In this document: piece by piece, positions 34,295 through 51,259 of the stretch | Numbering within the stretch: position 1 is the stretch's first letter | How the letters are laid out: each line of letters opens with the position of its first letter | Assembly (NCBI GenBank): GCA_965209035.1 | Contig: OZ242372.1 | Coordinates: 672,001-736,000 of the forward strand | DNA from: Gammaproteobacteria bacterium | Lineage (GTDB): Bacteria > Pseudomonadota > Gammaproteobacteria > CBDBNL01 > JAAOII01 | DNA length: 64,000 nucleotides | Reading direction: 5' to 3' | Position numbers and translations under genes: made by a program | The notes under the pieces: model-generated | Told to the model about the DNA's origin: nothing | What the model saw: the letters and a program-made list of their open reading frames with translations, nothing else | Database searches by the model: none

Positions 34295-34331
34295 TTTATT
34301 TCTCTTTTTAAGTTCAATTTGACTAACACAA

Positions 34332-34404
<73 letters not shown>

Positions 34405-34427
34405 AAAAAAATAGACTGTGAACTCTA

Positions 34428-35618
34428 TTATTTTATGACTTTGGCCACCACGCCCGCACCAACAGTCCGACCGCCTTCCCGTATGGCAAAGCGCAACCCT
34501 TCTTCCATGGCAATAGGAGCGATCAATTTAACCAACATCTTGATGTTATCTCCCGGCATGACCATTTCTACCTTGTCCGGTAACTCGACCTCGCCGGTAA
34601 CATCAGTGGTCCGAAAATAAAACTGCGGCTTATAACCCTTTATAAACGGCGTATGTCTTCCGCCTTCGTCTTTGGTCAGAATGTAAACCTCGGCTTCAAA
34701 CTCAGTATGCGGAGTGATACTGCCGGGTTTGGCAAGCACCTGTCCGCGCTCCACGTCTTCGCGCTTTGTCCCTCTCAACAAGACGCCCACATTCTCGCCG
34801 GCTCTGCCTTCATCCAAAAGTTTTCTAAACATTTCAACGCCGGTGCAGGTCGTCTTTGTTGTATCCTTGATACCGATAATTGCCACTTCCTCATGAACCT
34901 TAACGATCCCGCGCTCAATTCGCCCGGTGACCACGGTCCCACGGCCTGAGATGCTGAAGATATCTTCTATGGGCATCAAAAACGGCTTGTCTATGTCTCT
35001 CTTAGGTTCCGGAAAATACTCGTCAAGCGTTTCCACCAGTTTAATGACAGAACCCGCCCCCATCTCACTCGTATCTCCCTCCAGAGACTTGAGTGCGGAG
35101 CCCACAATAATCGGAGTATCGTCACCGGGGAACTCGTATTTTGTCAGAAGTTCTCTGATTTCTACTTCCACCAGTTCCAATAGTTCTTTGTCGTCGACCT
35201 GATCGGCTTTGTTAAGATAAACCACAATTCGGGGGACCCCTACCTGGCGTGCCAGAAGGATGTGCTCCCGAGTCTGCGGCATAGGACCGTCGGCGGCGGA
35301 AACCACCAAAATAGCGCCGTCCATTTGGGCCGCACCGGTAATCATGTTTTTGATGTAGTCCGCGTGTCCCGGACAATCCACATGCGCATAATGTCTCTTG
35401 TCACTTTGGTATTCCACATGCGAGGTTGCTATGGTAATACCGCGTTCTTTTTCTTCCGGAGCATTGTCAATACCCGCAAAAGTCAGAGCATCTCCGCCCC
35501 ATTTGTCGGCACAAACTTTTGTAAGAGCGGCCGTCAAAGTAGTTTTCCCATGATCCACATGACCGATGGTTCCCACATTAATATGGGGTTTTGTTCTTTC
35601 GTATTTTTCTTTTGCCAT
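34428..35618 (-). CDS. tuf: Elongation factor Tu
   Basis: [21 protein letters not shown]. Confidence 0.99.
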
Positions 35619-35673
35619 TTTTTATCTTCTAAAATAAAATTTAATTTTTATAAAATCCAATCGTCAAACTCAA

Positions 35674-35746
<73 letters not shown>

Positions 35747-35779
35747 AACCTCATTCTTATTTGCCGTTACTTTAACTTA

Positions 35780-35850
35780 AGCGGGTAGCGGGGATCGAAC
35801 CCGCATTCTCAGCTTGGAAGGCTGATGTGCTACCATTATACCATACCCGC
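35780..35850 (-). tRNA. tRNA-Gly(TCC)
   Basis: GCGGGTATGGTATAATGG...TCAGCCT-TCC-AAGCTGA...GGTTCGATCCCCGCTACCCGCT. Confidence 0.95.
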
Positions 35851-36014
35851 AAGAATTGCATAAAACATAAGACTCGCACAGCACATGATACAAAAGCATT
35901 AATAAAATAATACCCGACAGAGAATGACTCGCACCAACGCAACACAAGAATTATAACAAAAAAAACTAAAAAAACACGCTTTTTAATGATTTTTTATCAA
36001 ATCTTTGTTAAAAA

Positions 36015-36096
36015 TGGAGAGGGCAGGATTCGAACCTACGAAGCACGAGGCGGCAGGTTTACAGCCTGCTGGGTTTGACCGCTCCCCAACCTCTCC
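36015..36096 (-). tRNA. tRNA-Tyr(GTA)
   Basis: GGAGAGG acceptor stem, GCAGGCT-GTA-AACCTGC anticodon arm, long variable arm, GGTTCGAATCC. Confidence 0.95.
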
Positions 36097-36105
36097 CCAA
36101 TAATA

Positions 36106-36178
<73 letters not shown>

Positions 36179-36328: not shown

Positions 36329-37834
36329 TTAATAATATGTGGATTCCAGTTCGGTGAATATCTCTATCTGGGTTTTTCGTTCGTCTCTTCTGGTTCGGTC
36401 CAGTTCAAGCAAATAATCCGGCGTGATCCCGCCTGTAACATATTTGCCGTCAAACATAGAACAATCAAAGTTTTTAATTTTTGTAGTGTCTCCGCCAACC
36501 GCTTCCACCAAAGAAGGCAGATCTTGGTAAACCAAACCGTCTGCACCGATGGAAGCACAAATATCTTCCGCATCGCAGCCATGTGCAATGAACTCGCTCT
36601 GAGAAGGCATGTCTATGCCGTAAACATTGGGGTAGCGCACAGGAGGCGCGGCAGATGCATAATAAACATGTTTTGCCCCGGCCTGACGTGCCATAGCGAT
36701 AATCTGTCGGCAGGTTGTTCCGCGCACAATCGAATCATCCACCAATAGGACATTCTTATTACGAAATTCAAAATCTATGATGCTCAGTTTACGACGAACC
36801 GAAGCATCTCTTAGGTGTTGATGTGGCATGATAAAAGTTCGACCGATGTAACGATTTTTGACGAGTCCCTCTCTGTAGTTGATGCCAAGATTCAATGCCA
36901 CTTCAACCGCGGATACGCGACTACTGTCCGGAACAGGAATGACCACATCTATGCGGTCTTTGGGGATCTTTTGGCGAATTCGCTTGCTGAGAGAAACACC
37001 CATTCGCTGCCTCGCCTGATGAACGGAGATCCCGTCAAGAACAGAATCCGGACGCGCAAAGTAAACATACTCAAAAATACAGGGCGATTTTTTGCCGCCA
37101 TAAACATGACGAAACAAGTCACCTGTCTCGGTGATTAACAACGCCTCACCGGCTTCCAGATCACGCACAACGGAAAAGCCTTGAGACTGCAAAGCAACCG
37201 ATTCGGAAGCAACCATGTATTCTGTTTTTGCCAAGCGGCGCCCTCGGCGTTCTCCCAAAATCAGAGGACGAATGCCATGTTTGTCGCGAAATGCCAATAC
37301 GCCTATCCCCAGCAGCAAGCAAACAGCCGCATAACCGCCTTCGCAGTTTTGGTACAACTGTTCAAGTGCCTTAAAAATTTGTGACGGCTCCGAAATATTG
37401 GAAGCAACGGGTTCCAAACAATATGCCAAATAATTGAGCATTAGTTCCGAATCGGAATTTGTATTGATATGCCGACGAGCATTAAGACGTAATTCTTCGC
37501 GAAGTTCGTGCGTATTGTTAATTGTCCCGTTATGGGCCAAGGAAATTCCATAGGGGCTGTTAACATAAAAAGGTTGACACTCGTTCGGATGCTCACCGCC
37601 GGCTGTCGGGTAACGCACATGTCCGATGCCCATATTGCCTCGCAATTGCAAAAGATGTTTCGATTCGTCAAATACTTCACTAACCAACCCCTTCTGACGA
37701 CGCAGATAAATAGAGTTTTTTTGGGCAGTTGCAATCCCGGCACCGTCTTGCCCGCGGTGTTGAAGCATAGTCAAGGCATCAAAAATACTCTGATTGACAT
37801 CAGTTTGGGCATATATACCCACCAGCCCGCACAT
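36329..37834 (-). CDS. purF: Amidophosphoribosyltransferase
   Basis: N-terminal MCG, LQHRGQD, GHVRYPTAG, VDDSIVRGTT. Confidence 0.98.
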   Translation of the reverse strand: MCGLVGIYAQTDVNQSIFDALTMLQHRGQDGAGIATAQKNSIYLRRQKGLVSEVFDESKHLLQLRGNMGIGHVRYPTAGGEHPNECQPFYVNSPYGISLAHNGTINNTHELREELRLNARRHINTNSDSELMLNYLAYCLEPVASNISEPSQIFKALEQLYQNCEGGYAAVCLLLGIGVLAFRDKHGIRPLILGERRGRRLAKTEYMVASESVALQSQGFSVVRDLEAGEALLITETGDLFRHVYGGKKSPCIFEYVYFARPDSVLDGISVHQARQRMGVSLSKRIRQKIPKDRIDVVIPVPDSSRVSAVEVALNLGINYREGLVKNRYIGRTFIMPHQHLRDASVRRKLSIIDFEFRNKNVLLVDDSIVRGTTCRQIIAMARQAGAKHVYYASAAPPVRYPNVYGIDMPSQSEFIAHGCDAEDICASIGADGLVYQDLPSLVEAVGGDTTKIKNFDCSMFDGKYVTGGITPDYLLELDRTRRDERKTQIEIFTELESTYY

Positions 37835-37932
37835 TTTTATTTACTCGTGTTTTTTGAAAAAGAAGTCGTCAAGATTTCCCAACCCGACATGCCCGACGAG
37901 AAGACCGGGCATCCTTTGGCAGATTTACAAGT

Positions 37933-38460
37933 TTACAAAACACATAGCCCGCCCCAAAGAACATCACATATTTTTTGTAAAACAGAGTTTGCCCAATACA
38001 ACTCCCATTGTTCCAAATAGGGAGTCAGACGAGAATTTTGCCAATAAGCACTTTCGTCCAAAGTTAAAAGGCGAACGATCTGGACAATAAAAATGCTTTG
38101 AACGGCCAACAAAGGCAAACTCAGAATCCCGCCAATCGCCCTTGTCAGAGGGACGGTGGTAACATTTGGATAACTTAACATCACAAAAGATACGATGATC
38201 CTAAGAAAAACGAACAGAAAGAAAAATATCAGGGCAAAGGGTAATAACAGCAAAAGTTCCGGGTCGGTAACATAGCGGCCCAATGGCTTTTGCAAAATAC
38301 CCGCAATCACTTGCGAAGAAGTCAAAACAGCTAACCAGAGAATGAGTGCAATCAAAGCCTTCACAAAGCCGCGAGATATGCCCACGCCGATTAAAATAAC
38401 CGCCAAGGCGACAAGTATCCAGTCCGTCTCATTAAATGAGGTAATGTTTATTAGTTCCAC
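37933..38460 (-). CDS. cvpA: CvpA family membrane protein
   Basis: DWIL...GISRGFVK; WQNSRLTPY; lies between dedD and purF. Confidence 0.85.
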   Translation of the reverse strand: MELINITSFNETDWILVALAVILIGVGISRGFVKALIALILWLAVLTSSQVIAGILQKPLGRYVTDPELLLLLPFALIFFFLFVFLRIIVSFVMLSYPNVTTVPLTRAIGGILSLPLLAVQSIFIVQIVRLLTLDESAYWQNSRLTPYLEQWELYWANSVLQKICDVLWGGLCVL

Positions 38461-39008
38461 TTTCTTATTATGCTATCCATTTGAAATAATCTGTCAACTT
38501 CTCCTTTATTATGAAGGGCTTTATCTTTTTGTAGGGTTGGTCCCACATAAACCGCGTATATTATATCATTTTCGGATTGTTTATGACTATGTGTAAAAGA
38601 AATAAATCCTTTGTCCGCCAATTCTTGCTTCAATTTTTGTGCGGATTCTTTGCTTTTTAATGAAGCCACCTGAACTACCCAGCGCACCGGAATTCCATTA
38701 TCATCAAAAGAAAAAGCATCCAGGCCGGCCTCACCGGCTTTGGGTTTGACGGTTTTCTTGGCATCTTTGCCGGAATTTTTTGCTTGAGTTTGAACATTTT
38801 CTTTGATTTCGGATAATTTTTCTTTGATCTCCAAAGAGTCAGAGACGGGCGGCGGCGGTTTTAACTCAAGCTCAACAAATCCCGGCGGCACTTCAATATC
38901 CCGATAGGAATGCGGCGGGATGTTGCGTAAAAGTTGTAAAAAAACAATCACCGCAATCACCAAAACAATGACCCCGCCTAAGATGCGAGAGCGAATCTTG
39001 TCATCCAT
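38451..39008 (-). CDS. dedD: SPOR-domain cell division protein, DedD-like
   Basis: RILGGVIVLVIAVI N-terminal TM, C-terminal SPOR domain (WVVQVASL, VYVGP); dedD-cvpA-purF order. Confidence 0.82.
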   Translation of the reverse strand: MDDKIRSRILGGVIVLVIAVIVFLQLLRNIPPHSYRDIEVPPGFVELELKPPPPVSDSLEIKEKLSEIKENVQTQAKNSGKDAKKTVKPKAGEAGLDAFSFDDNGIPVRWVVQVASLKSKESAQKLKQELADKGFISFTHSHKQSENDIIYAVYVGPTLQKDKALHNKGEVDRLFQMDSIIRKWN

Positions 39009-39029
39009 TTTGTTAATTCAATTTCAACA

Positions 39030-40634
39030 TCAATCAAAAACAACCCGAATGCCTATGACGGAAGATTTGTGATGCAAAGGGGCCTTTGCATAATAACTAT
39101 AATACGCGCTTAATGGACCGGGAAGGCGATAGTTTCCTCCTTTAACTATGGCCTTAAGAGTCGCACCTTCCGGGGTAAAAGAACTTGTCCATTCCGAAAT
39201 ATTACCCGCCATTGACACCACCCCTGTGTTTGTTTTATCCGCTAACTCTTTGCGAACAGGAATCGGCACATCCGGCGTATATTGATTTTCAAGATCTCGC
39301 ACATGCGCCGCTTCTTTTTGATACGCATTTCCCCAGGGGTAAGGCTTACGAGAGTCACCGCCGAAAGCATAAAGCCATTCGCGTTCGGTAGGCAGCCTGC
39401 CCCCGGCCCATTTCGCAAATGCATAAGCACTCCACCAATCAATACCAACCACAGGCAGATCCAATTGACCGGTCTGTTCTTGCCAATTCGTTGGTCGATA
39501 AGAATGTTTACGCGGTTGGTTTTTGTTCGCATAAAAGCCGAGACCGGCAAAAGGGTCACGCAAAAAACTTCGATATTGTGCCCGACTCACTTCATACTTA
39601 CCAAACCTAATGTCCCCGTTCTGCGGAGAAACTGCCGAGAGAAAGTTTCTAAAAGAAGACGGTTTGATTTCTTCGGATCGCGACAGTAACTTGGGCGCAT
39701 AATGCCGAGCAGCAATGCCGATAAAATAAGAACCACCCGAAACACGAACGACCTTACTTTTTGCATTCCACGGTATTTCTCGCACGGAGTTTTTCAAGTC
39801 TTTGTCCCGGTTGTTCGGCGGGTAAACACAACGAAACCCGGTGTACTTGGAACGAAAAGAAAAAGGTGCCGGCCGTGCAATAAAATTGAGAGCATGGATC
39901 TGATGCGGGCGATTATAACTGTTACCGCCGCGTAGCACAGATCTTTTGTCTTCCGTGATCTCCAAAGTCCATTCCGAAAGACCGCTCCCCAAATCATAAA
40001 CACCTTCGGGACTGGCATTTGGCTGACGCTGTTTATCCGAGGCCGCCAAATTCAACAGAGGATCACTATAACGCCATGCCGAGGCAACAAACTTCTCTCC
40101 CCAAGGATAGGATCTGTTTTCTTTGCCGCCGGCAGCGGCAATCCATTGTTCTCGATTTGGGAGAGAGCCACCGACTGCGGAACAATAAGCATAGGCCTCG
40201 TAAAAGCTCACCCCGGCTGCCGGAAGTGCCAGTTTTCCTAAAATAGGATGTCGGGCATGCGGGTTTTGAAAACGATAGTCCGCTGGCTGAGAAACATGCA
40301 CATGCCGTTGCCCGGATGCTCCTTGTAAAACATACCAGTTCAGAAATTGGCGGTAATCACTTTGACGAACTTCGTATTTATCAATATAAAAAGCGTCGAT
40401 CCGCAACATCTCACCCGAAGCCATGATTTGATCCCTTAGTTCCCCGTTACCCAAAACATAACCGGCGTGTTCGGCAATTGCCCGGTCCAAACCGCTCAGC
40501 GGAGTTTCTTGAGCGGGAACATCCAACGCGACGCGTTCTATGAAACGTGCCTGTACTCGTAAAAAAATAAGATAAACCGCCAGTGCGAAAACCGGCAATA
40601 TCCATAAAACAAGGTAAGTGAATCGTCTCAGCAT
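39030..40634 (-). CDS. Membrane-anchored protein with two FGE-sulfatase/SUMF1 (C-type-lectin-like fold) domains
   Basis: Two copies of KYEV..., LP.E.W, YPWG, G(N/L).SEWT, (R/K)GG and GFRCV/GIRVV; no catalytic Cys pair seen. Confidence 0.85.
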   Translation of the reverse strand: MLRRFTYLVLWILPVFALAVYLIFLRVQARFIERVALDVPAQETPLSGLDRAIAEHAGYVLGNGELRDQIMASGEMLRIDAFYIDKYEVRQSDYRQFLNWYVLQGASGQRHVHVSQPADYRFQNPHARHPILGKLALPAAGVSFYEAYAYCSAVGGSLPNREQWIAAAGGKENRSYPWGEKFVASAWRYSDPLLNLAASDKQRQPNASPEGVYDLGSGLSEWTLEITEDKRSVLRGGNSYNRPHQIHALNFIARPAPFSFRSKYTGFRCVYPPNNRDKDLKNSVREIPWNAKSKVVRVSGGSYFIGIAARHYAPKLLSRSEEIKPSSFRNFLSAVSPQNGDIRFGKYEVSRAQYRSFLRDPFAGLGFYANKNQPRKHSYRPTNWQEQTGQLDLPVVGIDWWSAYAFAKWAGGRLPTEREWLYAFGGDSRKPYPWGNAYQKEAAHVRDLENQYTPDVPIPVRKELADKTNTGVVSMAGNISEWTSSFTPEGATLKAIVKGGNYRLPGPLSAYYSYYAKAPLHHKSSVIGIRVVFD

Positions 40635-40676
40635 TTTATTATCATATGATTATAATGCAACACCTATCTGCGGAAC

Positions 40677-42479
40677 TTACGAAGTCAGGCGAGTACGGGT
40701 AATGCCGCTACCAAGTGCCCAAAGAACCATCACAATTAAAATAAAGGTCCCGCCGTAAACCAGACTCAACACGATCTCACGCCGAGAAGAAAAAACCGGT
40801 AACTTGGTAAAAATGGACTGACTTCCCAAGTAAACTTTGTTCAGTTCCCCCAAAACTCCAAAATCAAACCCTTCAATAATTTCACCTCCGTAAACATATC
40901 CGATGACCACATCGGAGATGTTCGGATCCAAAACAGCGACGGGATACCACCGCTCAAAATCCAAAATATCACTCGGTATCAGAAGCGTATCTCCGCGAAA
41001 AATCTCGGTTGTCTTGCCCGTATCCGGATAAGGAAAAAGGCGCATGTCAGCATTGACCCATTCCGCCAGGCGAGGTGTACTTTGAAATAAATTCATTGAA
41101 AAAAGGTGTATGCTATCCAAGGGACCATTAATCGGCATCAATAAACGACTTAAACAAAAAGAACAAAGGCGATATTCAACTTCCAAGGGACCCTCTTTTG
41201 TTTCAAAAGCAGTCCGCATGTTTTCCCGTAAACTCTCCGCCAATTGCATCTCTTCCGTGCTGACACCGGAAAAGCCGCTTGTCAAAAACTCCGTAAAAAA
41301 TTGATCCGGGTTTATGCTGTCAATTCCGTTTTTATCCGCACGACGCAAATATTCGTTCAAGAACAGAATCATAAAAGTATGATAATCCACCGGCTCACCC
41401 TCTTGTCCCGGCGGAAAGGCGTTTTCAAAAAGTTGTTGAAACAACAAGGTTCCTTCTTCGCCCTCTCCTCCGAAAGGAACGCGAATCTTCACAGAAGAAG
41501 GCCTGCCAAAAGAATCACCCTCGGTGCCGCGTTCCTCCGTTATGGCTCTTGCCAATTCTTCGGCCAGAGTATCTCCGTAGCCGCCGTCATTATTTGCCTC
41601 AAACTCCGACAAACTTTCGGCTCGCTCTCGCCTTTCCAGACCGCCGCGCGCCAGTCCCACTGTCTCACTCGGTGGCAATAATTCTTCAATCAACTCGGCA
41701 TCCCTCAAAGATCCCCCTTCAGGAATATCCTCCGGAATGATGGCAGCCGCATCTTCCGTATCCGTATTACCGCCTTGCTCTCGCACTTCGGGAGATTCCG
41801 GATCTTCTTCCAAACCCTCTCCGTTACCTTCGTCTTCTTCACCGTCCGATGCGGAACCATTTGACGATGTCTCGTCACTCTCACTCAGAGTATCTCCTTC
41901 GCCACCAGGAGGCAGGGGCACAGATTCACCGACAAAATGCCAATGGCTCGGCTCCACTCCGTTCTCGCGCAAAATAGAAAGTCCGAGATAGTAAAGATCC
42001 GCGGAATAAATGTCCAATCTGGCCCGTTGTTTTTCCACCGGGTTTAAAAGACTTAAATACACATCCAAGGCGTTATTTTCACGCAGCAGTTCCCCCCGAT
42101 TAAAGATGCGTCCCGAGTTGCGCTCGCGTATATAACCCGCATGCAGTTCAAAAATTGGATAAAGCCATAACAAGCAATCATGCCGTTCGTATTCGTTTCT
42201 CCAAGGGCCACGCGGCGAAGCACAATGATAGTTATGCAAAACGGCCGGCGGGCTGCTCGGTAAATCGTTGAATACCAAACTGCCGGCAATATCGCGAGCA
42301 AGAATGGCATCAATTTCAACACTTTGTTCTGTCTCCTGTTCCGCTTGAATCTTTCTTTGATTAATCGTAATGATAATCACTACCAACAGAACAACCACGC
42401 CGTTGGCCAAAATATCCGCCAAAGCAACACCGCCAAAACTGCCAATAATCTTTTTCTTCTTGCCCGCGAAACGATGCAT
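40677..42479 (-). CDS. Uncharacterised membrane protein: N-terminal TM with Asp, acidic linker, C-terminal TM
   Basis: ALADILANGVVVLLVVIII; Glu/Asp-rich middle; hydrophobic C-terminal helix. Confidence 0.75.
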   Translation of the reverse strand: MHRFAGKKKKIIGSFGGVALADILANGVVVLLVVIIITINQRKIQAEQETEQSVEIDAILARDIAGSLVFNDLPSSPPAVLHNYHCASPRGPWRNEYERHDCLLWLYPIFELHAGYIRERNSGRIFNRGELLRENNALDVYLSLLNPVEKQRARLDIYSADLYYLGLSILRENGVEPSHWHFVGESVPLPPGGEGDTLSESDETSSNGSASDGEEDEGNGEGLEEDPESPEVREQGGNTDTEDAAAIIPEDIPEGGSLRDAELIEELLPPSETVGLARGGLERRERAESLSEFEANNDGGYGDTLAEELARAITEERGTEGDSFGRPSSVKIRVPFGGEGEEGTLLFQQLFENAFPPGQEGEPVDYHTFMILFLNEYLRRADKNGIDSINPDQFFTEFLTSGFSGVSTEEMQLAESLRENMRTAFETKEGPLEVEYRLCSFCLSRLLMPINGPLDSIHLFSMNLFQSTPRLAEWVNADMRLFPYPDTGKTTEIFRGDTLLIPSDILDFERWYPVAVLDPNISDVVIGYVYGGEIIEGFDFGVLGELNKVYLGSQSIFTKLPVFSSRREIVLSLVYGGTFILIVMVLWALGSGITRTRLTS

Positions 42480-42484
42480 TTTGT

Positions 42485-43006
42485 TTATCTGCTTTTTTCC
42501 AGACTGCGGCGGATACGCGGTGGCAGATCTTCCAAGCGCACCGCTTGCAGAAAATCGTCATTTGCAATAATCCAACCGATGGAAATTCTTCGGTTTGGCC
42601 ACATGTTCTTTAAACAATCGCGCGCCAACCGCATAGTGGAAACACTGCCTGTGGTGATTGCAAAAATTAATTGGGTATTTTTTTTATCGTATACTTCGCG
42701 CGCATAGTTGGCAAAGTTTGTTTGCGCGCAGTCTTTGCGTAAGTCCGCTCTGTTCGTTGCTTCCTTTTTTTCTATGACATGCACTCTGTCCGGAAAAGTG
42801 AGCACAATATAGCCTTCGGCACCCTGTTCCCAATTAATCTTGTAAATGCTGTCTTCCAGAGAGTTTTCCACCTGAGCCCGCAATTCCGATTCGGCAAAGA
42901 TATTGATCAGCAGGAACAAAATTAATAGCAAGGCAAATGCCGCGCCAAAGATTTCTACCATAGGGGTATTGCCGCCGGCCAGATCCTGGCGCGTTCTACG
43001 GGGCAC
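42485..43006 (-). CDS. Uncharacterised single-pass membrane protein (ExbD/TolR/MotB-like position)
   Basis: TPMVEIFGAAFALLLILFLLINI resembles the ExbD/TolR TP..D TM start; follows the MotA/TolQ gene. Confidence 0.7.
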   Translation of the reverse strand: MPRRTRQDLAGGNTPMVEIFGAAFALLLILFLLINIFAESELRAQVENSLEDSIYKINWEQGAEGYIVLTFPDRVHVIEKKEATNRADLRKDCAQTNFANYAREVYDKKNTQLIFAITTGSVSTMRLARDCLKNMWPNRRISIGWIIANDDFLQAVRLEDLPPRIRRSLEKSR

Positions 43007-43009
43007 GGG

Positions 43010-44116
43010 CTATACTTTTTGTGCTAGTTGGTTTTCAAGAAACAAAAATTTCTGCTCTTCCCACTTTTGCAAGGCAGTGTACAGAAAAACCAAAAATACA
43101 CTCAATGACAGAGCGATCAAGGTGGTATCAAATGCAATACTTAAAGGTTCCATTGCCCGGTTAATTCCTTCTCCCACATTAACACTTGTTGTGCCAACAA
43201 TGTTTCCTATTTCACCGGCCGCCAACGAAATTCCAAGAACTGTGCCAATAAACCCCAAAATGGGAATCGCCCAATTAATGTAACGCGGCACAAAGTAAAA
43301 GTTTTCGTTGATCTGCCAAACTGTTTCCAAAAAATCTCCGGACACAGACTTGGCAAGTTTGTCTTTTTTCCTGTTGTCCGAATACTCCCGCCATAATGAG
43401 GATATGGCAGAATCGGCCGAGGCAACCCTTAGATGACGAAAACTTAAATAATATTTACCCGCCAAAAGAACCAATTCCCAGTAAAAGAGTGTCAAACACA
43501 AGGGAGGAATGAGACCGCGTTGCAAGAATTTTTCTCTTAAGAAAACAAGCCCGCCGTCGCCAAACAAGTAAAACAAAACCATCGTCAAAGAGGTTAATAT
43601 TGCGGCAACACAAAAACTGACATACAAAGAAGGTCCGCCAAGCAAGCCGTGCAGCCGCTGTTGCAATGAAATTGTTGGCATCATCTCCGAATAAAGAAAA
43701 CGGAGCAAAATTCCGACACAACCGAGGCCCAAAAGGAAAAACAACATCACAGTATGTCCGGCAATATCCGGCGGTTTTTCTCGAAGCAAACCATCCCACA
43801 AAAAGTAACTGCTTAGCAACACCGTAATTAACAACACGATTGCATTAACGGCAATCGCCACACGCATCGCCATCCGAATACCCGCACCTTGTGTGTCTTT
43901 GACATAGATAAACCGAACCGCATAAAGCAAAACATCCGCCAACAACCCGATCACCAATCCGACAACAAGTGTCAATCCCATCAAAGAGGTGAGTGCGCTC
44001 AAAGAAACGGGTAAAAATAACAGGTTGAGCCACCAAACAATTCTGCCAAACTTGCCGGCAAGTTTATTTTTTTTATTTTGGCCCTTTTTGCCAAGGTCTG
44101 CCGTTCTCTTTTTCAT
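43010..44116 (-). CDS. MotA/TolQ/ExbB proton-channel family protein with extra N-terminal TM helices
   Basis: WAIPILGFIGTVLGI and LSIAFDTTLIAL channel helices. Confidence 0.85.
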   Translation of the reverse strand: MKKRTADLGKKGQNKKNKLAGKFGRIVWWLNLLFLPVSLSALTSLMGLTLVVGLVIGLLADVLLYAVRFIYVKDTQGAGIRMAMRVAIAVNAIVLLITVLLSSYFLWDGLLREKPPDIAGHTVMLFFLLGLGCVGILLRFLYSEMMPTISLQQRLHGLLGGPSLYVSFCVAAILTSLTMVLFYLFGDGGLVFLREKFLQRGLIPPLCLTLFYWELVLLAGKYYLSFRHLRVASADSAISSLWREYSDNRKKDKLAKSVSGDFLETVWQINENFYFVPRYINWAIPILGFIGTVLGISLAAGEIGNIVGTTSVNVGEGINRAMEPLSIAFDTTLIALSLSVFLVFLYTALQKWEEQKFLFLENQLAQKV

Positions 44117-44679
44117 TTTTTATTTGTTCGTTGTTTTTTATCTTGCCCATCCCGGTTATCTTTTATCTCCTTGTAAAACGAGCCGTCGTGCGGCTTGTTT
44201 TCAACGGATCCTTCCTCTTTGTTCTGTGTCCCGTTACCCGCGGAGTTGCCCACTGACGTACCCGATGCGTGTGCATCGTCTCTTTTTGTATGCTTCCCGG
44301 GTGGCTTTCCTTTTGTATGGTGAAAGCGACCACTCATGGATACGCCGTGGCGCATGTCTATATCCCGGTAATAAATATCGCCGCGCACACTTGCCCCGGG
44401 CATCAAACTGATCACGCCTTTGGAGTAGATACTGCCGGTTACTTTTCCAAAAATAATGACTCTGTCCGCACGAATATCACCAATGATTTGGGCATTTTTA
44501 CCAAGTATTAACTTGTTTTTCCCTTCTTCTTCGGCAACCAAATCGCCGCGCACGGAACCGTCAAAATAGAAACTACCGCTAAATAACAGGTCCCCGCGAA
44601 TCTTAACAACCGCATTAACATAGGTATCCGATCCCTTAACATCTATACCCGATTCCGGTCTGTTTTTCCCAAACATCAA
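44113..44679 (-). CDS. Bactofilin with charged C-terminal tail
   Basis: IRGDLLFSGSFYFDGSVRGDL, IIGDIRAD, VRGDIYY beta-helix pattern. Confidence 0.88.
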   Translation of the reverse strand: MMFGKNRPESGIDVKGSDTYVNAVVKIRGDLLFSGSFYFDGSVRGDLVAEEEGKNKLILGKNAQIIGDIRADRVIIFGKVTGSIYSKGVISLMPGASVRGDIYYRDIDMRHGVSMSGRFHHTKGKPPGKHTKRDDAHASGTSVGNSAGNGTQNKEEGSVENKPHDGSFYKEIKDNRDGQDKKQRTNKK

Positions 44680-44692
44680 AGAAAGATCCGAA

Positions 44693-45052
44693 TTACCCGC
44701 CGGTGTTTATAAAAGTATTTGCATTCACGCTGGATGACACTTCCAAGGACAAACTTTCACTTTTAATCTCACCTGTGATGCGACCTCCTGCCAGTACACT
44801 GCAACTTTGGGCAATAACTCCGCCCTCCACAAGACCCTTGACATAAACATTGACCGCATGGATTTTCCCTTTAACAGAACCATTTTTCCCTATGGACACA
44901 TCATCGGTACTTACAAGACTTCCTTCCAAATGACCATCCAAATGCAGAGTCCCTGCCAAATTGATGTCGCCGGTCAAAGTAGTCCCTGAAGTGATAACCG
45001 TAGTCCCTCTTTGTCCTGTTGTTGTAATATTGCCGCTATTATCGGTTCCCAC
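44693..45052 (-). CDS. Bactofilin (CcmA-like)
   Basis: TVITSGTTLTGDINLAGTLHLDGHLEG, SIGKNGSVKGKI. Confidence 0.9.
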   Translation of the reverse strand: MGTDNSGNITTTGQRGTTVITSGTTLTGDINLAGTLHLDGHLEGSLVSTDDVSIGKNGSVKGKIHAVNVYVKGLVEGGVIAQSCSVLAGGRITGEIKSESLSLEVSSSVNANTFINTGG

Positions 45053-45954
45053 TTAACTGATTTTATGGTTAAAAAAATCTTATTATAATTTACAAGATTC
45101 CAATTATAAAACAAATACGGATTAATTGGCTTGTCCAGATAGCGGACCTCATAATGCACATGCGGACCGGTTGATATCCCGGTGTTGCCACCCAAAGCAA
45201 TTTGTTCTCCCTTTTGCACCACATCTCCTTTGCTCACCAAGTATTCATCCAAATGTCCGTATACGGTGGAAAATCCGTATGCGTGTTCCAATATCACAAC
45301 CTTGCCATAACCTCCTTTATAGCCGGTAAAAGTTACAGTGCCGGGAGAGGTTGCCACCACACTGTCTCTCATTCGTATGGGAAGATCTATGCCGTGGTGA
45401 AACTGACGGTAATTACGCAAGGGATGAATGCGGACACCATAACTGCTACTAATGTAAGTATCTTTTGCCAAAGGAGTACCGCTGGGAAGAGCATATAGCA
45501 CGCGGGCACGACGATGAATCTCATTATCTAACACACCAAATACCTCTTTATATTCATACGATGACGCGGAATTAAAACCTACAAATTGCGGCGATGCAAA
45601 AATATCGTTCGTTTTTTTCTGCTCCAATACATTCGCAAGAACATTCAATCTTGTCATAATAGCGGATTGAATATTTTCGTTGTGTAACAGTTCTTCCGAC
45701 AGCGTATTGCTGTATACCCGCTGATTATTATATTTGGTTGTCATGCTCTTATATTTAATGTGCATGTCAGCATACTGTCTTTGAATATAATCCTTTTGTT
45801 CTTGCAAGTAATCCACCAAAAATGTGCCTCCAATCAAGCCGACCATCATAGAAAATAACAGGCCCACACCGAGAAATACAACGAACCGATGCGTCCGGAT
45901 CACCCGAGTTCCGTGAATACTACTGATTGTAATTGTTGATCTTTTATGAAGCAT
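44974..45954 (-). CDS. M23/LytM peptidoglycan endopeptidase with TM and coiled coil (Csd1-like)
   Basis: HHGID, YGHL, STGPHVHYEVR; its 3' end overlaps the bactofilin gene. Confidence 0.92.
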   Translation of the reverse strand: MLHKRSTITISSIHGTRVIRTHRFVVFLGVGLLFSMMVGLIGGTFLVDYLQEQKDYIQRQYADMHIKYKSMTTKYNNQRVYSNTLSEELLHNENIQSAIMTRLNVLANVLEQKKTNDIFASPQFVGFNSASSYEYKEVFGVLDNEIHRRARVLYALPSGTPLAKDTYISSSYGVRIHPLRNYRQFHHGIDLPIRMRDSVVATSPGTVTFTGYKGGYGKVVILEHAYGFSTVYGHLDEYLVSKGDVVQKGEQIALGGNTGISTGPHVHYEVRYLDKPINPYLFYNWNLVNYNKIFLTIKSVKWEPIIAAILQQQDKEGLRLSLQGLL

Positions 45955-46345: not shown

Positions 46346-48274
46346 TTACCGGCCTTGTGTCGAGAGGCCGCCCGGCAGGCAATTCAGGGCCGGGTATTGG
46401 CTGCTCGTGCCGAGATCCCAGACGCGGATGAAGGAGGCACCTGGCCCGTCATCGGTGGCATCTTCCATTTCCTCGCCGGTGTCCGGATCACACCAGAAGC
46501 TGCCCCAGACCTCATAGATGCTCCCGGCAAACTCGGTCGGCGATTGCAAGGCTGTCGTGCTATGACCATCGCCCAAATTACCGGCACTCATAGACTGCAT
46601 GGTGGTTTGATTGTCCCAGTAGGAAGCAATGACATCGGTGTCACTATTGTTGCTGCCGATCAATCCGCCGACATCACTGAGACCTGAAACAAGCCCGGGG
46701 GCGGCATAAGAATAATTAATTTGAGCTCCTGCCCCCGTCCCAACTAGGCCGCCAACACGCGGTCCGGTTGTTCCCTTAACACTTCCGCCGGACACATAAA
46801 CATGGCGAATATTCGCGCTATCCCCTTCCCCTATCAGGCCGCCAACAGCATTACTCCCGGCAACATTCACACCGGACACGGGCGCATAGCGAATATCCGC
46901 ATCCTGACCAAACCCAACCAGGCCGCCAACAGCATTACTCCCGGCAACATTCACACCGGACACGGGCGCATAGCGAATATCCGCATCCTGACCAAACCCA
47001 ACCAGGCCGCCAACATTGCTCCTCCCGGAAATATTCACACCGAACACGGACGCATAGCGAATATCCGCATTAAACCCCTGCCCAACCAGGCCGCCAACAT
47101 TATTAATCCCGGAAATATTCACACCGGACACGGACGCATAGCGAATATCCGCATTCTCGCCCTTCCCAACCAGGCCGCCAGCAAAAGAATCCGCCCCGGA
47201 AACAACTCCGCCGGATACGACGGCATAGCGAATATCCGCATCCTCGCCATTCCCAACTAGGCCGCCAACATTACTACTCCCGAAAACATTCACACCGGAT
47301 ACGGACGCATTGCGAATATCCGCATTCCTACCATACCCAACCAGGCCGCCAACATTAGTGGCACCGCTACTGACATTTGCATTCCGGAGATGCAGATTTT
47401 GGATATCGCCGGTTAAGGCACCAAACAACCCCACTCCATTGGCAGTATTGTTCGCAGAGATGAACAGATCTGCAATACGATAACCCCCGCCGTCAAAGAT
47501 TCCGGTATAAGACGTGCAAACAGTCGATGATGAACAAGAGCCGATCGGCTGCCAACCGCTGCCGGTCGTCCAGACAGACCGGTTGCCACTGCCCGCGGCA
47601 TAGGAATCCGCATCGCTAAAATTCAACGAGCGAGTTAATTCGTAGCCATTACAGCCGGAACTCGGGCAACCCACAGAACCCATAGCGGTAATATTGGGAA
47701 ACATCCCATCATCCGTTCCATTGCCATTGAGATTATCGCGCAGCCGTGCCAAGTCATCCAAAGTGCTGATTTCTATGAGGCTGTTATTATTGTCGTCCAC
47801 ATCTGTCTCATCCAAGATCTCGTCATTGTCATCGTCCGGGTCCTCCCTCAGGGTTGTTTGACATCCGGTAACCAAACTATCCGGCAGCTCATCGCTATCC
47901 GTGTCCACACTCGCACAGGCATCTGTCCGGAACGCATCGTTCGTATCCGCCACGCCATCATTGTCATCGTCCAAATCCTCGCCCGCATCGCGACAGCCGT
48001 CACGGTCATTGTCCGTAGATGCATTGGAAGTCCAGTCGGTATCGCCGCTCGGACAGGCGTCCGCAGTATCCGCAATGCCGTCCCCATCCAAGTCTGTGTT
48101 CGTTCCCCCGCCGGAACCGCCGCCACCGGAACCGCCACCGCCACAGGCGGCGAGTAGGACAACCGATAGAGTGATTGTCAATAATAAAATGATGCCGCTG
48201 CGTGCCGTTTGCCCGGCCGCGGCAATACATGCAATGCAGTTGCTACTGATAGTTTGTATATTAAATATGTTCAT
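46346..48274 (-). CDS. Surface lipoprotein 1: TSP3-like Asp-rich repeats plus GLUG-repeat domain
   Basis: Lipobox LLAAC-GGGG; DxDxDG repeats; 9 GGL(V/I)G units; C-terminus WDLGTSSQYPALNC. Confidence 0.85.
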   Translation of the reverse strand: MNIFNIQTISSNCIACIAAAGQTARSGIILLLTITLSVVLLAACGGGGSGGGGSGGGTNTDLDGDGIADTADACPSGDTDWTSNASTDNDRDGCRDAGEDLDDDNDGVADTNDAFRTDACASVDTDSDELPDSLVTGCQTTLREDPDDDNDEILDETDVDDNNNSLIEISTLDDLARLRDNLNGNGTDDGMFPNITAMGSVGCPSSGCNGYELTRSLNFSDADSYAAGSGNRSVWTTGSGWQPIGSCSSSTVCTSYTGIFDGGGYRIADLFISANNTANGVGLFGALTGDIQNLHLRNANVSSGATNVGGLVGYGRNADIRNASVSGVNVFGSSNVGGLVGNGEDADIRYAVVSGGVVSGADSFAGGLVGKGENADIRYASVSGVNISGINNVGGLVGQGFNADIRYASVFGVNISGRSNVGGLVGFGQDADIRYAPVSGVNVAGSNAVGGLVGFGQDADIRYAPVSGVNVAGSNAVGGLIGEGDSANIRHVYVSGGSVKGTTGPRVGGLVGTGAGAQINYSYAAPGLVSGLSDVGGLIGSNNSDTDVIASYWDNQTTMQSMSAGNLGDGHSTTALQSPTEFAGSIYEVWGSFWCDPDTGEEMEDATDDGPGASFIRVWDLGTSSQYPALNCLPGGLSTQGR

Positions 48275-48661: not shown

Positions 48662-51259
48662 TTACCGGTCTTGTGCCGAGAGGCCGCCCGGCAGGCAATT
48701 CAGAGCCGGGTATTGGCTGCTCGTGCCGAGATCCCAGACGCGGATGAAGGGGGCGGGCAACTCGGTGGTGCTTTCCGCACCAGTGTTCGGGTTGCACCAA
48801 GCATTGCCCCAGTCGGCATAAATATTGTCCATCCCCGTGAAGTCGGTCGGCGATTGTAATTCCAGCGTGGTCTTACCTCCACCGGGATGACCGGCATCGA
48901 TTGGCTGTTCGGTGGTTACAGTATCCCAGTAGGAAGCAGTGACGACGGTGTCACTATTGTTGCCGATCAATCCACCGACAGCATTCTCACCTGAAACAAG
49001 CCCGGGGGCGGCATAAGAATAATTAATTTGAGCTTCTTCCCCATTCCCAACCAGGCCGCCGGCAACACCCCCGGAAACACTTCCGCCGAGCACATAGGCA
49101 TAGCGAATATCCGCATCCTCACCATACCCAACCAGGCCGCCAACAGCAACACTCACCCCGGAAACATTCACACCGGACACGGACGCATAGCCAATACCCG
49201 CATTCTCACCATCCCCAATCAGGCCGCCAACAGAAATACCTCCGAAAACACTTCCGCCGGACACGGACGCATAGCGAATATCCGCATCCTCACCATCCCC
49301 AACCAGGCCGCCAACAGAAAAAGGCCCGGAAACATCCACACCGGACACGGACGCATAGCCAATATCCGCATTAAGCCCCTGCCCAACCAGGCCGCCAGCA
49401 GCAGTATTCCCGATAACATTTCCGCCGGACACGGACGCATTGCGAATATCCGCATTCTCACCATTCCCAACCAGGCCACCGGCAACCCTTCCGATAACAC
49501 TTCCACCGGACACGGACGCATTGCGAATATCCGCATTCCCACCATTCCCAACCAGGCCACCGGCAACACTCCCGAAAACATCCACACCGGACACGGACGC
49601 ATTGCGAATATTCGCATTCCTACCATCCCCAACCAGGCCACCGGCAACCTTCCCGGCAACACTTCCGCCGGACACGGGCGCATTGCGAATATCCGCATTC
49701 CTACCATACCCAACCAGGCCGCCAGCAACAGTGGTGGCACCGCCACTGACATTTGCATTCAAGAGATGCAAATTTTGGATACCGCCGGTTAAGGCACCAA
49801 ACAACCCCACTCCATAGGCAGTATTGCTCGCAGAGATGAACAGATCTGCAATACGATAACCGCCGCCGTCAAAGATTCCGGTATAAGAGGTGCAATCATT
49901 CACAGCGGAACAAGAGCCGATCGGCTGCCAACCGCTGCCGGTCGTCCAGACAGTCGGGTTGCCACTGCCCGCGGCATAGGAATCCGCATCACCAAAATTC
50001 AACGAGCGAGTCAGCTCATAACCCACACAGCCGCCGTCATCGTCATCCGGGCAGCCCATAGAACCCACAGAGGTGATCTCGGGGATACGGTCATCATCCG
50101 CCCCATCGCCGTTCAGATCATCGCGCAGCCGTGCCAAGTCATCCAAAGTGTGGATCTCGATCAAGCCATTATTATTGTCATCCACATCCTCTGTCAAGGT
50201 AGTATTCACACCGGTCGTGCAACCGGCAGCGAGTTTGTCCGGTGCTCCGTCTCCATCCGTGTCGATGCTCGCACAGGCATCCGTCACAAACGCATCGTCC
50301 GGATCCGCCACGCCATCATTGTCATCGTCCGAATCTTCATCTGTGTCGCGACAGCCGTCACCGTCATGGTCCGCGGACGCATTGGAAGTCCAGCCAGTAA
50401 CACCGGTCGGACAAGTATCGGCCGTATCCGCCACGCCATCATTGTCATCGTCCGAATCTTCATCTGTGTCGCGACAGCCGTCACCGTCATGATCCGCGGA
50501 CGCATTGGAAGTCCAGCCGGTAACACCGATCGGACAAGTATCGGCCGTATCCGCCACGCCATCATTGTCATCGTCATCATCACAGGCATCACCGCCGTCA
50601 TCCGCATTGTCCGTGTTGGCTTGGTCCGCATTGGCAACCAACGGACAATTATCGTTATCATCATCCTCACCGTCACCGTCAATATCTGTGCCTACACCCG
50701 CTCCCGTTGTGCTTGACACAGGAGGTGAGGTCACGATAATGCCGTTCTTATAACGCACCGCAACTGTGATGCTGTAGGTGATGTTATTGGTTAAATCCGT
50801 AATATTGTAGCTGACCCAAGCACGCGGCGAAACATCCGCCACGGTAGAACTAAATTCTTTTGTTGTGCCACCATCGCTCGCATCGTCACGGCGTGTGGTA
50901 ATAACGAACCCGTCGATATTATCCAAGGCCGGATTAGTCCAATCCACGAGAATATAATCCTCACCGGCCAGAGCCTGCATATTGAAAACAGCCAGGAAAT
51001 TCTGAGAAGCAGGATCGCCGCCGCCACCGATGCCATCGCTGCCGCCACAACCTGTCAGGACCAAACCGAACATACCCGCCAGCAGTACACCGTAAAAACG
51101 AGCCAGTATGCACATCCGTCGTGCCCTATTGGGTTCGGGAAAAGCCTTAAAGGCATTAAAAGCATTAAAAATATTAAGGAGACGCACAGATACCGTGCCT
51201 CTTTGTTCGCGGCGCATTGCTTTCGCCGACCGCACAGGAAAAAAGTGTAACTGATTCAT
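48662..51259 (-). CDS. Surface lipoprotein 2: FN3-like domain, TSP3-like repeats, GLUG domain
   Basis: Lipobox LVLTGC; WTNP...YNITDLTNNITYSITV; two 41-aa repeats; 10 GGL(V/I)G units. Confidence 0.85.
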   Translation of the reverse strand: MNQLHFFPVRSAKAMRREQRGTVSVRLLNIFNAFNAFKAFPEPNRARRMCILARFYGVLLAGMFGLVLTGCGGSDGIGGGGDPASQNFLAVFNMQALAGEDYILVDWTNPALDNIDGFVITTRRDDASDGGTTKEFSSTVADVSPRAWVSYNITDLTNNITYSITVAVRYKNGIIVTSPPVSSTTGAGVGTDIDGDGEDDDNDNCPLVANADQANTDNADDGGDACDDDDDNDGVADTADTCPIGVTGWTSNASADHDGDGCRDTDEDSDDDNDGVADTADTCPTGVTGWTSNASADHDGDGCRDTDEDSDDDNDGVADPDDAFVTDACASIDTDGDGAPDKLAAGCTTGVNTTLTEDVDDNNNGLIEIHTLDDLARLRDDLNGDGADDDRIPEITSVGSMGCPDDDDGGCVGYELTRSLNFGDADSYAAGSGNPTVWTTGSGWQPIGSCSAVNDCTSYTGIFDGGGYRIADLFISASNTAYGVGLFGALTGGIQNLHLLNANVSGGATTVAGGLVGYGRNADIRNAPVSGGSVAGKVAGGLVGDGRNANIRNASVSGVDVFGSVAGGLVGNGGNADIRNASVSGGSVIGRVAGGLVGNGENADIRNASVSGGNVIGNTAAGGLVGQGLNADIGYASVSGVDVSGPFSVGGLVGDGEDADIRYASVSGGSVFGGISVGGLIGDGENAGIGYASVSGVNVSGVSVAVGGLVGYGEDADIRYAYVLGGSVSGGVAGGLVGNGEEAQINYSYAAPGLVSGENAVGGLIGNNSDTVVTASYWDTVTTEQPIDAGHPGGGKTTLELQSPTDFTGMDNIYADWGNAWCNPNTGAESTTELPAPFIRVWDLGTSSQYPALNCLPGGLSAQDR

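Follow-up and report, generated by a model that had tools for sequence, protein, structure and literature searches.

The window analysed here, a 64,000-nucleotide stretch of the genome of a Gammaproteobacteria bacterium (contig positions 672001-736000), carries on its minus strand four adjacent genes encoding a channel protein of the MotA/ExbB/TolQ family (the A subunit), two B-type proteins (B1 and B2) and a membrane-anchored protein with two domains of the formylglycine-generating enzyme (FGE) fold. It is reasonably probable that these genes form a self-contained module for an ion-driven motor of the MotA/ExbB/TolQ type in the inner membrane. A first-pass annotation of this DNA had joined them with two bactofilin genes and an M23 peptidase gene into a seven-gene, ion-driven envelope machine. 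The ion-driven part of that proposal is retained, the Pfam match and the conserved helices of the channel making a MotA/ExbB-type complex the best reading, and the seven-gene scope is not: the conserved unit consists of four genes. The annotation had also suggested that the system was undescribed, and no match to an already described one was found in the curated family sets or the literature searched.

The four-gene unit and its carriers

Conservation of the module was assessed with an alignment-based scan in which each prokaryotic species was represented by a single genome; it returned at least 597 stretches with the expected pattern, at least 577 of them encoding a relative of the channel; a scan with the single A protein as query had confirmed none of 88 pattern stretches. 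The best 80 of the at least 577 channel-relative stretches were scanned with hidden Markov models, and all counts of loci given below refer to these 80. Among 8000 candidates scored, 537 were channel relatives.

The genes for A, B1, B2 and the FGE protein lie on one strand and in the same order at 70 of the 80 loci, and the B1 gene follows the A gene at 74. Because the four core genes recur in this way, their arrangement is far beyond chance, and the co-occurrence in other genomes on which the first-pass annotation depended is found for this set. Contig ends truncate four other loci, three after B1 (L045, L058, L080) and one after the channel gene (L088). One locus (L031) keeps the channel, B1 and B2 with no FGE gene nearby, three hold the channel alone (L032, L070, L082), and two encode distant MotA_ExbB proteins of other architecture (L096, L097). 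All three lone-channel genomes encode B2 elsewhere, two of them within a B1-B2-FGE trio.

The surroundings of the unit are far more variable. The ten genes of the window's locus (Table 1) are all present, and in order, in G001-G003, the most complete genomes of the window's family, with protein identities of 35-71%; a genome of a different family (G034) retains of these ten the channel, B1, B2 and FGE genes alone. The commonest flanking gene, found at 11 of the 80 loci (L086:7293-8294 and its homologues), encodes a Ser/Thr protein kinase; it lies upstream of the channel gene, at a distance of one to three genes, and on the opposite strand. Nothing beyond the four genes is widely conserved around the module.

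Several irregular loci deserve a description of their own. The module looks scattered in genome G005, in which the gene immediately after that for the channel encodes a transposase of the PD-(D/E)XK family (L016:7265-9446) and B2 lies 1.6 Mb from the channel; neither B1 nor an FGE gene was found within 5 kb of B2, the rest of that genome not having been searched for them. A metagenome-assembled genome (MAG) of Planctomycetaceae (L097:2309-7540) shows another, different pairing of the FGE and MotA_ExbB domain families, with a 1088-aa protein combining a CHAT domain and tandem FGE domains as the divergent neighbour of a 570-aa MotA_ExbB protein. An Akkermansiaceae MAG (L096:8896-12119) encodes a 431-aa fusion of a zinc ribbon with MotA_ExbB, followed by two open reading frames (ORFs) with no Pfam match and a radical SAM gene.

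By their record names, the carriers at the 80 loci are mostly Gammaproteobacteria; the cultured Vibrio thalassae CECT8203 (L073) and Thioalkalivibrio sp. HK1 are also among them. Four carriers of the full four-gene set are named outside this class, namely an Alphaproteobacteria, a Deltaproteobacteria, a Thermodesulfobacteriota and a Nitrospirales MAG, and this pattern suggests that the module has passed horizontally between marine bacteria that live in association with hosts. Sponge-associated names account for 17 of the 80 records (Porisulfidus, 4; Poriferihabitaceae, 6; Spongiihabitans, 5; Iophon and Hymedesmia symbionts, 2). Of 400 genomes sampled evenly from the window's class, 15 contained the channel family at E<=1e-20, mostly genomes of 1.5-2.7 Mb. 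A B2 profile run against 1.84 billion representative sequences matched 168 proteins at E<=0.001, of which 135 reached E<=1e-30, numbers that point to a small, sharply bounded family that does not merge into the large ExbD/TolR family.

Subunits of the putative motor

The channel is the member of the module most readily placed by sequence. Pfam MotA_ExbB (PF01618) matches residues 247-355, which cover the last two transmembrane (TM) helices, with 29.1 bits against a cut-off of 22.9, and the protein scored 30.5 bits in the genome-wide scan for this family. By a hydropathy scan, the channel contains eight hydrophobic segments, B1 has a single segment (residues 19-37), B2 has two (19-37 and 569-587), and the FGE protein begins with its only one. 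The eight channel segments comprise five extra ones at the N-terminus, a feature of the A family, followed by the three-TM core of the MotA_ExbB family, whose last two helices bear PILGFIGTVLG and AFDTT. Across 37 homologues, the stretches P285-S297 (PILGFIGTVLGIS) and I327-L333 (IAFDTTL) are mostly invariant, T292, D330, T331 and T332 included, and in their sequence they resemble the TolQ and ExbB helices that line the proton path. An hhalign comparison with the genome's own TolQ paired PILGFIGTVLGI with the GTVWGI helix of TolQ at a probability of 4.2%, which is not significant. One 474-aa channel homologue (P0067) has a C-terminal extension containing the B1 motif PMVEIFGG, which looks like a frameshifted read-through into the B1 gene.

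Of the two B-type proteins, B2 has the residue expected of a proton-carrying subunit. Positions L20, D22, L24, A25 and N26 of its N-terminal TM motif LADILAN are invariant in all 70 sequences aligned, and Asp22 stands, like the Asp of ExbD, TolR and MotB, near the cytoplasmic end of the helix. Among 75 sequences of B1, the corresponding position, E18, is occupied by Glu in 29, by Ala in 45 and by Ser in one, and the Glu of PMVEIF is not a conserved proton carrier. The TM acid that had been proposed for both genes in the first-pass annotation is thus conserved in B2 and not in B1, and the same is true of a conserved Asp of the ExbD/TolR type in the N-terminal TM.

Predicted structures suggest a further likeness. 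The AlphaFold2 (AF2) model of B1 has a mean predicted local distance difference test (pLDDT) score of 82.5, and when the domain that follows its TM helix was compared with 48,161 chains by VIA-align, TolR (5by4_A) came first, with Z 7.1 and a root-mean-square deviation (rmsd) of 2.5 Å over 80 residues; further matches were 2jwk (Z 5.7) and ExbD 2pfu (Z 4.5). The B2 model (mean pLDDT 70.6) comprises an N-terminal TM, a long helix, a TolR-like domain at about residues 103-187, an acidic, disordered linker (186-301), a helical and beta-rich C-domain and a C-terminal TM (566-599). For residues 59-184 of B2, searched against the same chains, TolR 5by4_A was again first (Z 6.4, rmsd 4.6 Å over 88 residues), and 2jwk was a further match (Z 5.4, rmsd 2.3 Å over 65 residues); a search of B2 in the ESM Atlas gave no usable match. 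On these models, the post-TM domains of B1 and B2 are likely to be TolR-like. The C-terminal helix of B2 stays hydrophobic among homologues, with Tyr575 in 50 of 60 sequences. No OmpA/MotB Pfam match was obtained for B1 or B2, and one B1 relative matches MotB_plug at E 0.047. B2 is best read as the Asp-bearing subunit, and B1 as a second TolR-like protein of uncertain role.

The fourth protein has an N-terminal signal-anchor TM, variable in sequence and hydrophobic, with no Cys or lipobox. Both of its FGE domains, which Pfam recognises as two stretches, keep the fold motifs RLP..EW..YPWG and GFRC/GFRV in 38 sequences, and neither has a Cys pair after GGN in that alignment, as the first-pass annotation had observed; we take the position after GGS/GGN to be that of the catalytic Cys pair from the human and actinobacterial enzymes. 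No other FGE-domain gene, and no Sulfatase (PF00884) gene, was found in the 92.7%-complete genome. A catalytic FGE enzyme was rejected on these two grounds, the missing Cys pair and the missing sulfatase gene, and because of them the protein is most likely a non-catalytic binding or structural protein. NCBIfam models matched it at the domain level only, with 65.6 bits for GldK (TIGR03525) against a cut-off of 350, and SenA and EgtB also below their cut-offs.

A link between B2 and the FGE protein is provided by gene fusions. Both proteins are encoded in one reading frame in L046 (equal to P0155, 1118 aa), L061 and P0242; the last of these, at 824 aa, contains the C-terminal half of B2 only and is probably incomplete at its N-terminus. 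A word-index search for longer, fused forms of B2 had found none, and it was an exhaustive profile search that recovered them. The three fusions are each other's closest relatives. They are only 59-68% identical to each other, and L046 and L061 have no detectable DNA similarity, which makes an assembly error unlikely and the retention of an ancestral fusion likely. Where the two parts meet in L046 and L061, the C-terminal TM of B2 is followed by about ten Arg-rich residues and then by the anchor TM of the FGE protein, and the shorter excerpt available for P0242 reads in the same way. Such junctions fit a predicted topology in which B2 starts inside the cell, has a periplasmic body and returns through the membrane, and the FGE protein goes out again.

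Complex prediction for the FGE protein with residues 300-600 of B2 gave a score of 0.56 (individual runs 0.56, 0.56 and 0.00), against 0.00 for the best of three controls. Agreement between the runs covers at least 9% of contacts, and the pLDDT of the partners is no lower than 63. The mark applied was reached by 58 of 80 solved complexes and by two of 110 mismatched pairs, and scores of 0.60 or below at this mark came from only seven of the 80 solved complexes, yet from both passing mismatches; with custom alignments in use, these calibration counts hold only roughly. The prediction weakly suggests that the FGE protein contacts this part of B2.

Taken together, these features are consistent with the following arrangement. 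The A subunit would form the channel ring, and B2, alone or paired with B1, would place its proton-carrying Asp helix inside that ring. Beyond their TM helices, B1 and B2 would each present a TolR-like domain, presumably in the periplasm, and B2 would re-enter the membrane by its C-terminal helix, beside the N-terminal anchor of the FGE protein. The latter may be what the motor acts on in the periplasm, an output or binding platform comparable to TolA, TonB or the FGE-fold GldK/PorK ring. A 5:2 assembly, the use of an ion gradient, the transmission of force and a binding target for the FGE domains would all be expected of such a machine.

A number of results weigh against this interpretation. 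The Pfam match of A is modest, and its profile found nothing at E<=1 among the sequences of solved chains in the Protein Data Bank (PDB), where the B1 and B2 profiles likewise found nothing below E 0.2. Pfam ExbD (PF02472) matched none of 42 B1 and none of 40 B2 members at E<=1, against 88-89 bits for the genome's own TolR and ExbD. The hhalign probabilities were 2.1% for B1 with B2, 2.7% for B1 with the genome's own TolR and 0.3% for B2 with that TolR; the B1-TolR alignment pairs PMVEI with the Asp motif of TolR and is not significant. The VIA-align Z scores of 6-7 lie in a range that the tool calls common for unrelated folds, and Foldseek searches of the PDB with the B1 and B2 models returned nothing at E<=0.001 (best E>=0.1). 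The acid of B1 is absent in 46 of 75 members, and a heterodimeric proton axle would therefore hold a single Asp. Finally, the contact between B2 and the FGE protein is counted on this side as well, one of its three prediction runs having scored 0.00.

Locus layout and neighbouring genes

Ten ORFs, all in one orientation, span positions 36329-45954 of the window (Table 1). The M23 gene and the first bactofilin gene overlap by 79 nt, contingent on the GTG start called for that bactofilin; a gap of 13 nt separates the two bactofilin genes, and bacB overlaps the A gene by 4 nt. Within the module, the gaps are 3 nt between A and B1, 5 nt between B1 and B2 and 42 nt between B2 and the FGE gene. Beyond it come a 21-nt gap to dedD, a 10-nt overlap of dedD with cvpA and a 98-nt gap to purF. 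Promoter-like sites occur across the region at the frequency expected from shuffled sequence, and the terminator-like sites all lie within coding sequence, none of them in an intergenic gap. NCBIfam leaves the bactofilins, the channel, B1 and B2 unnamed.

Table 1. Genes of the minus-strand run that contains the four-gene module, with positions in the window
Feature	Position	Strand	Basis of assignment	Status
M23/LytM peptidase, N-terminal TM	44974-45954	-	Pfam PF01551 Peptidase_M23, 9.3e-31	neighbour, not core
Bactofilin, 119 aa	44693-45052	-	Pfam PF04519, 4.7e-20	neighbour, not core
Bactofilin (bacB), 188 aa	44113-44679	-	Pfam PF04519, 6.4e-20	neighbour, not core
A subunit, MotA/ExbB/TolQ-family channel, 368 aa	43010-44116	-	Pfam PF01618, E 9e-07	core
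B1, 173 aa, one N-terminal TM	42485-43006	-	no Pfam/NCBIfam match	core
B2, 600 aa, two TMs	40677-42479	-	no Pfam/NCBIfam match	core
Membrane-anchored tandem FGE-fold protein, 534 aa	39030-40634	-	Pfam PF03781, E 5.2e-50, two stretches	core
dedD-like SPOR protein	38451-39008	-	Pfam SPOR, 4.8e-11	neighbour, not core
cvpA	37933-38460	-	Pfam Colicin_V, 6e-11	neighbour, not core
purF	36329-37834	-	sequence; 61-66% identity to same-order gene in G001-G003	neighbour, not core

Whatever could be checked of the first-pass annotation at this level agrees with the present data. The seven co-oriented genes, overlapping or at most 42 bp apart and running into dedD-cvpA-purF, are confirmed in coordinates, domains and spacing, and the strings PILGFIGTVLG, AFDTT, PMVEIF and LADILA are present in the translations. 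The extra TMs of the channel correspond to five of its eight hydrophobic segments, and the C-terminal TM and large acidic stretch of B2 to its second hydrophobic segment and to the acidic linker of the model. The reported lack of TonB and flagellar genes also holds, TonB_C, ExbD and FliG having no match inside the window.

On either side of this run lie genes of other kinds. Just downstream of purF is the gene for EF-Tu (34428-35618), with a tRNA-Trp gene at one end and a group of four tRNA genes (Thr, Gly, Tyr, Thr) at the other (window positions 34331-36178). Two large paralogous repeat proteins are encoded on the minus strand at 46346-48274 (642 aa) and 48662-51259 (865 aa). They carry GLUG motifs and thrombospondin type 3 repeats, the larger one also fn3, at a G+C content of 53-55% against 43-48% in the module, and they may be surface or adhesin proteins.

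Alternative explanations and relation to known motors

An apparatus of seven genes, in which motor, bactofilins and M23 peptidase act together and the filaments position the motor for local cell-wall remodelling, would account for several features of the locus: the seven genes stay contiguous, co-oriented and overlapping or nearly touching in the window, in G001-G003 and in L019 although their proteins share only 43-71% identity, the intergenic gaps are free of terminator-like sites, and the SPOR-domain gene dedD comes next. Yet a co-oriented bactofilin or M23 gene stands beside the module at only two of the 80 loci (L018 and L019), a weak M23-like match on the opposite strand being all that L050 adds, and the M23, bactofilin and dedD-cvpA-purF genes adjoin it only in the window's family (G001, which is L018, together with G002, G003 and L019). 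In the class-wide sample, a bactofilin occurs in 9 of 15 module carriers against 223 of 400 genomes overall, a tally that includes the unpublished-flagged genomes G044 and G300, and no bactofilin match was found in carriers G005, G057, G209, G222, G258 and G321, each at least 95% complete. Because the rate among carriers is close to the background, positioning by bactofilin filaments, as the first-pass annotation had envisaged, is no property of the system, and the module does not depend on bactofilin. The M23 and bactofilin genes also correspond to a described pair that works without such a motor, as far as the sources available go (PMC10945521; bioRxiv 10.64898/2026.10.09.758143). A seven-gene machine is therefore improbable: its channel, B1, B2 and FGE genes stand as a tightly conserved set, and the remainder is confined to one family.

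The described pair offers the closer comparison for the upstream genes, which encode a bitopic M23 peptidase and bactofilins and are treated here as neighbours only. The window's M23 protein has a TM at residues 24-42, HHGID and HVH motifs and an LmdC-like architecture, with every NCBIfam equivalog below its cut-off, and its gene adjoins a bactofilin gene as in the LmdC-bactofilin pair; the genome holds only two bactofilin genes, both in the window. Adjacency of M23 and bactofilin genes has been reported 'in a broad range of species' (PMC10945521), and LmdC has been treated together with Baf and Api in Pseudomonas (bioRxiv 10.64898/2026.10.09.758143). In the accessible part of the former source, adjacency and co-occurrence terms led to no MotA-type module beside such a pair, although its supplements could list one; MotA and ExbB each have 0 occurrences in the preprint. 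In the window's family, the module has come to lie between an LmdC-like M23-bactofilin pair and dedD, and is probably co-transcribed with them. This may or may not amount to a local link with cell-wall work, and such a link would not be general. The eye-catching bactofilin/M23 neighbourhood is thus a lineage-specific juxtaposition and calls for caution.

The genome contains other motors of this superfamily, with ybgC-tolQ-tolR-tolA at C1:760-762k and exbB-exbD at 651-653k. FliG_C was not found in this 92.7%-complete genome. Because tolQRA and exbBD lie elsewhere and FliG was not found, the module is a third, separate system of the MotA/ExbB type. The exbB-exbD pair (L102, G000:C1:650393-653776) is followed by an ABC_membrane protein gene, not by tonB. 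A flagellar MotAB stator was rejected, there being no FliG and no OmpA/MotB match in B1 or B2. Pfam on the neighbours revealed no Tol-Pal genes beside the module, and TolB, Pal and a TonB-dependent receptor are not encoded in the window, tolB and pal not having been searched for in their own right. The module shares with TolQR and ExbBD a Pfam MotA_ExbB protein with a GTVxG helix and an acidic/Thr-rich last helix, an invariant Asp in the N-terminal TM of one B protein, TolR as the best fold match of both B proteins, and a third, membrane-anchored periplasmic protein always encoded alongside. It differs from them in that B1 and B2 are undetectable as ExbD/TolR by sequence, A has its five additional N-terminal segments, B2 is extended by the long acidic linker, another domain and a TM at the C-terminus, and the place of TolA or TonB is taken by a tandem FGE-fold protein whose anchor helix is not conserved.

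Some Ton clusters have two ExbD-like genes per ExbB, and the module might accordingly be a specialised Ton-type system in which the motor energises a TonB-dependent transporter through a separate TonB-like arm, with the FGE protein as an accessory. At eight of the 80 loci, a TPR protein with a TonB_C-like end (23.2 bits against a cut-off of 24.6) is encoded immediately after the FGE gene and in the same orientation, and at seven of them a TonB-dependent receptor comes next (for example, the TPR protein of L079:13824-15122 and the receptor of L077:15061-18360). However, 72 of the 80 loci, the window included, have no such neighbours, the two TonB_C matches of the window's genome lie far away, and the invariant fourth gene, which also supplies the fusion partner of B2, encodes an FGE protein and not TonB. 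As a general explanation this is unlikely; a Ton-like use may apply in the subclade with TonB_C and receptor neighbours, and a distant TonB may be used elsewhere. Another comparison is with the Myxococcus gliding motor AglR-AglQ-AglS, which has one TolQ-like A gene and two different TolR-like B genes. The module resembles it, by description only, in having one A gene followed by two different B genes, and differs in that one B protein has no conserved acid and the other is 600 aa long with two TMs.

The GldLM/PorLM motors of Bacteroidota likewise combine an ion-driven motor with a periplasmic partner of the FGE fold, GldK/PorK, and the FGE protein of the module belongs to the GldK fold family (TIGR03525, E 4.9e-18), with a weak match to GldJ. 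In both systems, the motor is encoded with a non-catalytic partner of this fold. A surface-motility or secretion motor of this kind is nevertheless very unlikely, since the GldK score is far below the model's cut-off, the N-terminal anchor has no lipoprotein Cys, and the carriers are named to other phyla. The module's FGE protein is of the inner-membrane signal-anchor type and tandem, whereas GldK/PorK is an outer-membrane lipoprotein with a single domain, and GldL, unlike A, is presumably not a true MotA_ExbB member. The GldM and GldN models had no match in the genome, and control genomes were equally silent. Least credible of all is a Zorya-type anti-phage or conflict system whose sensor would be the FGE domains. 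ZorAB, like the module, has a MotA/ExbB-type protein with additions, PADLOC gave a weak ZorA match (E 0.016, 12 bits), and the CHAT-tandem-FGE protein of L097 stands beside a different MotA_ExbB protein. Against this, PADLOC found nothing else among the seven proteins, ZorC/D/E-like genes included, the conserved set has no nuclease or other effector gene, and the module keeps the same chromosomal place within the window's family. A defence island was likewise rejected.

The preferred reading thus remains a self-contained, four-gene motor module. A full-text search found no paper pairing MotA/ExbB/TolQ or ExbD with FGE/SUMF1 terms, although paper supplements could list the family, and none of the papers listed for sponge symbionts with ExbB/ExbD contains SUMF1. 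The accessible text of a 2025 survey of MotAB and its non-flagellar homologues names AglRS among the latter, mentions homologues of unknown function and contains no sulfatase, FGE or bactofilin, and its supplements could likewise list the family (PMC12505986).

The module enlarges its superfamily by a discrete and conserved family in which two B-type proteins lack annotation, a B subunit bears two TM helices and an obligatory FGE-fold partner is fused to this subunit in three diverged sequences. Ion-driven motors of the MotA/ExbB type power flagella, Ton uptake, Tol-Pal constriction, gliding and the type IX secretion system, and Zorya defence, and new mechanics have been learned from every output that was added. 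The present module is carried by small-genome marine symbionts, and the cultured carrier Vibrio thalassae CECT8203 makes its function testable. More speculatively, and with limited confidence on our part, it may represent a further class of 5:2 motor in which paired TM helices join a B subunit to a periplasmic platform of lectin-like, tandem FGE folds. It would then be a proteobacterial counterpart of GldLM-GldK, spread horizontally among marine host-associated bacteria, especially sponge symbionts, for interaction with the envelope or the host matrix. If this is true, the coupling of such motors to FGE-fold partners would be old or would have arisen more than once.

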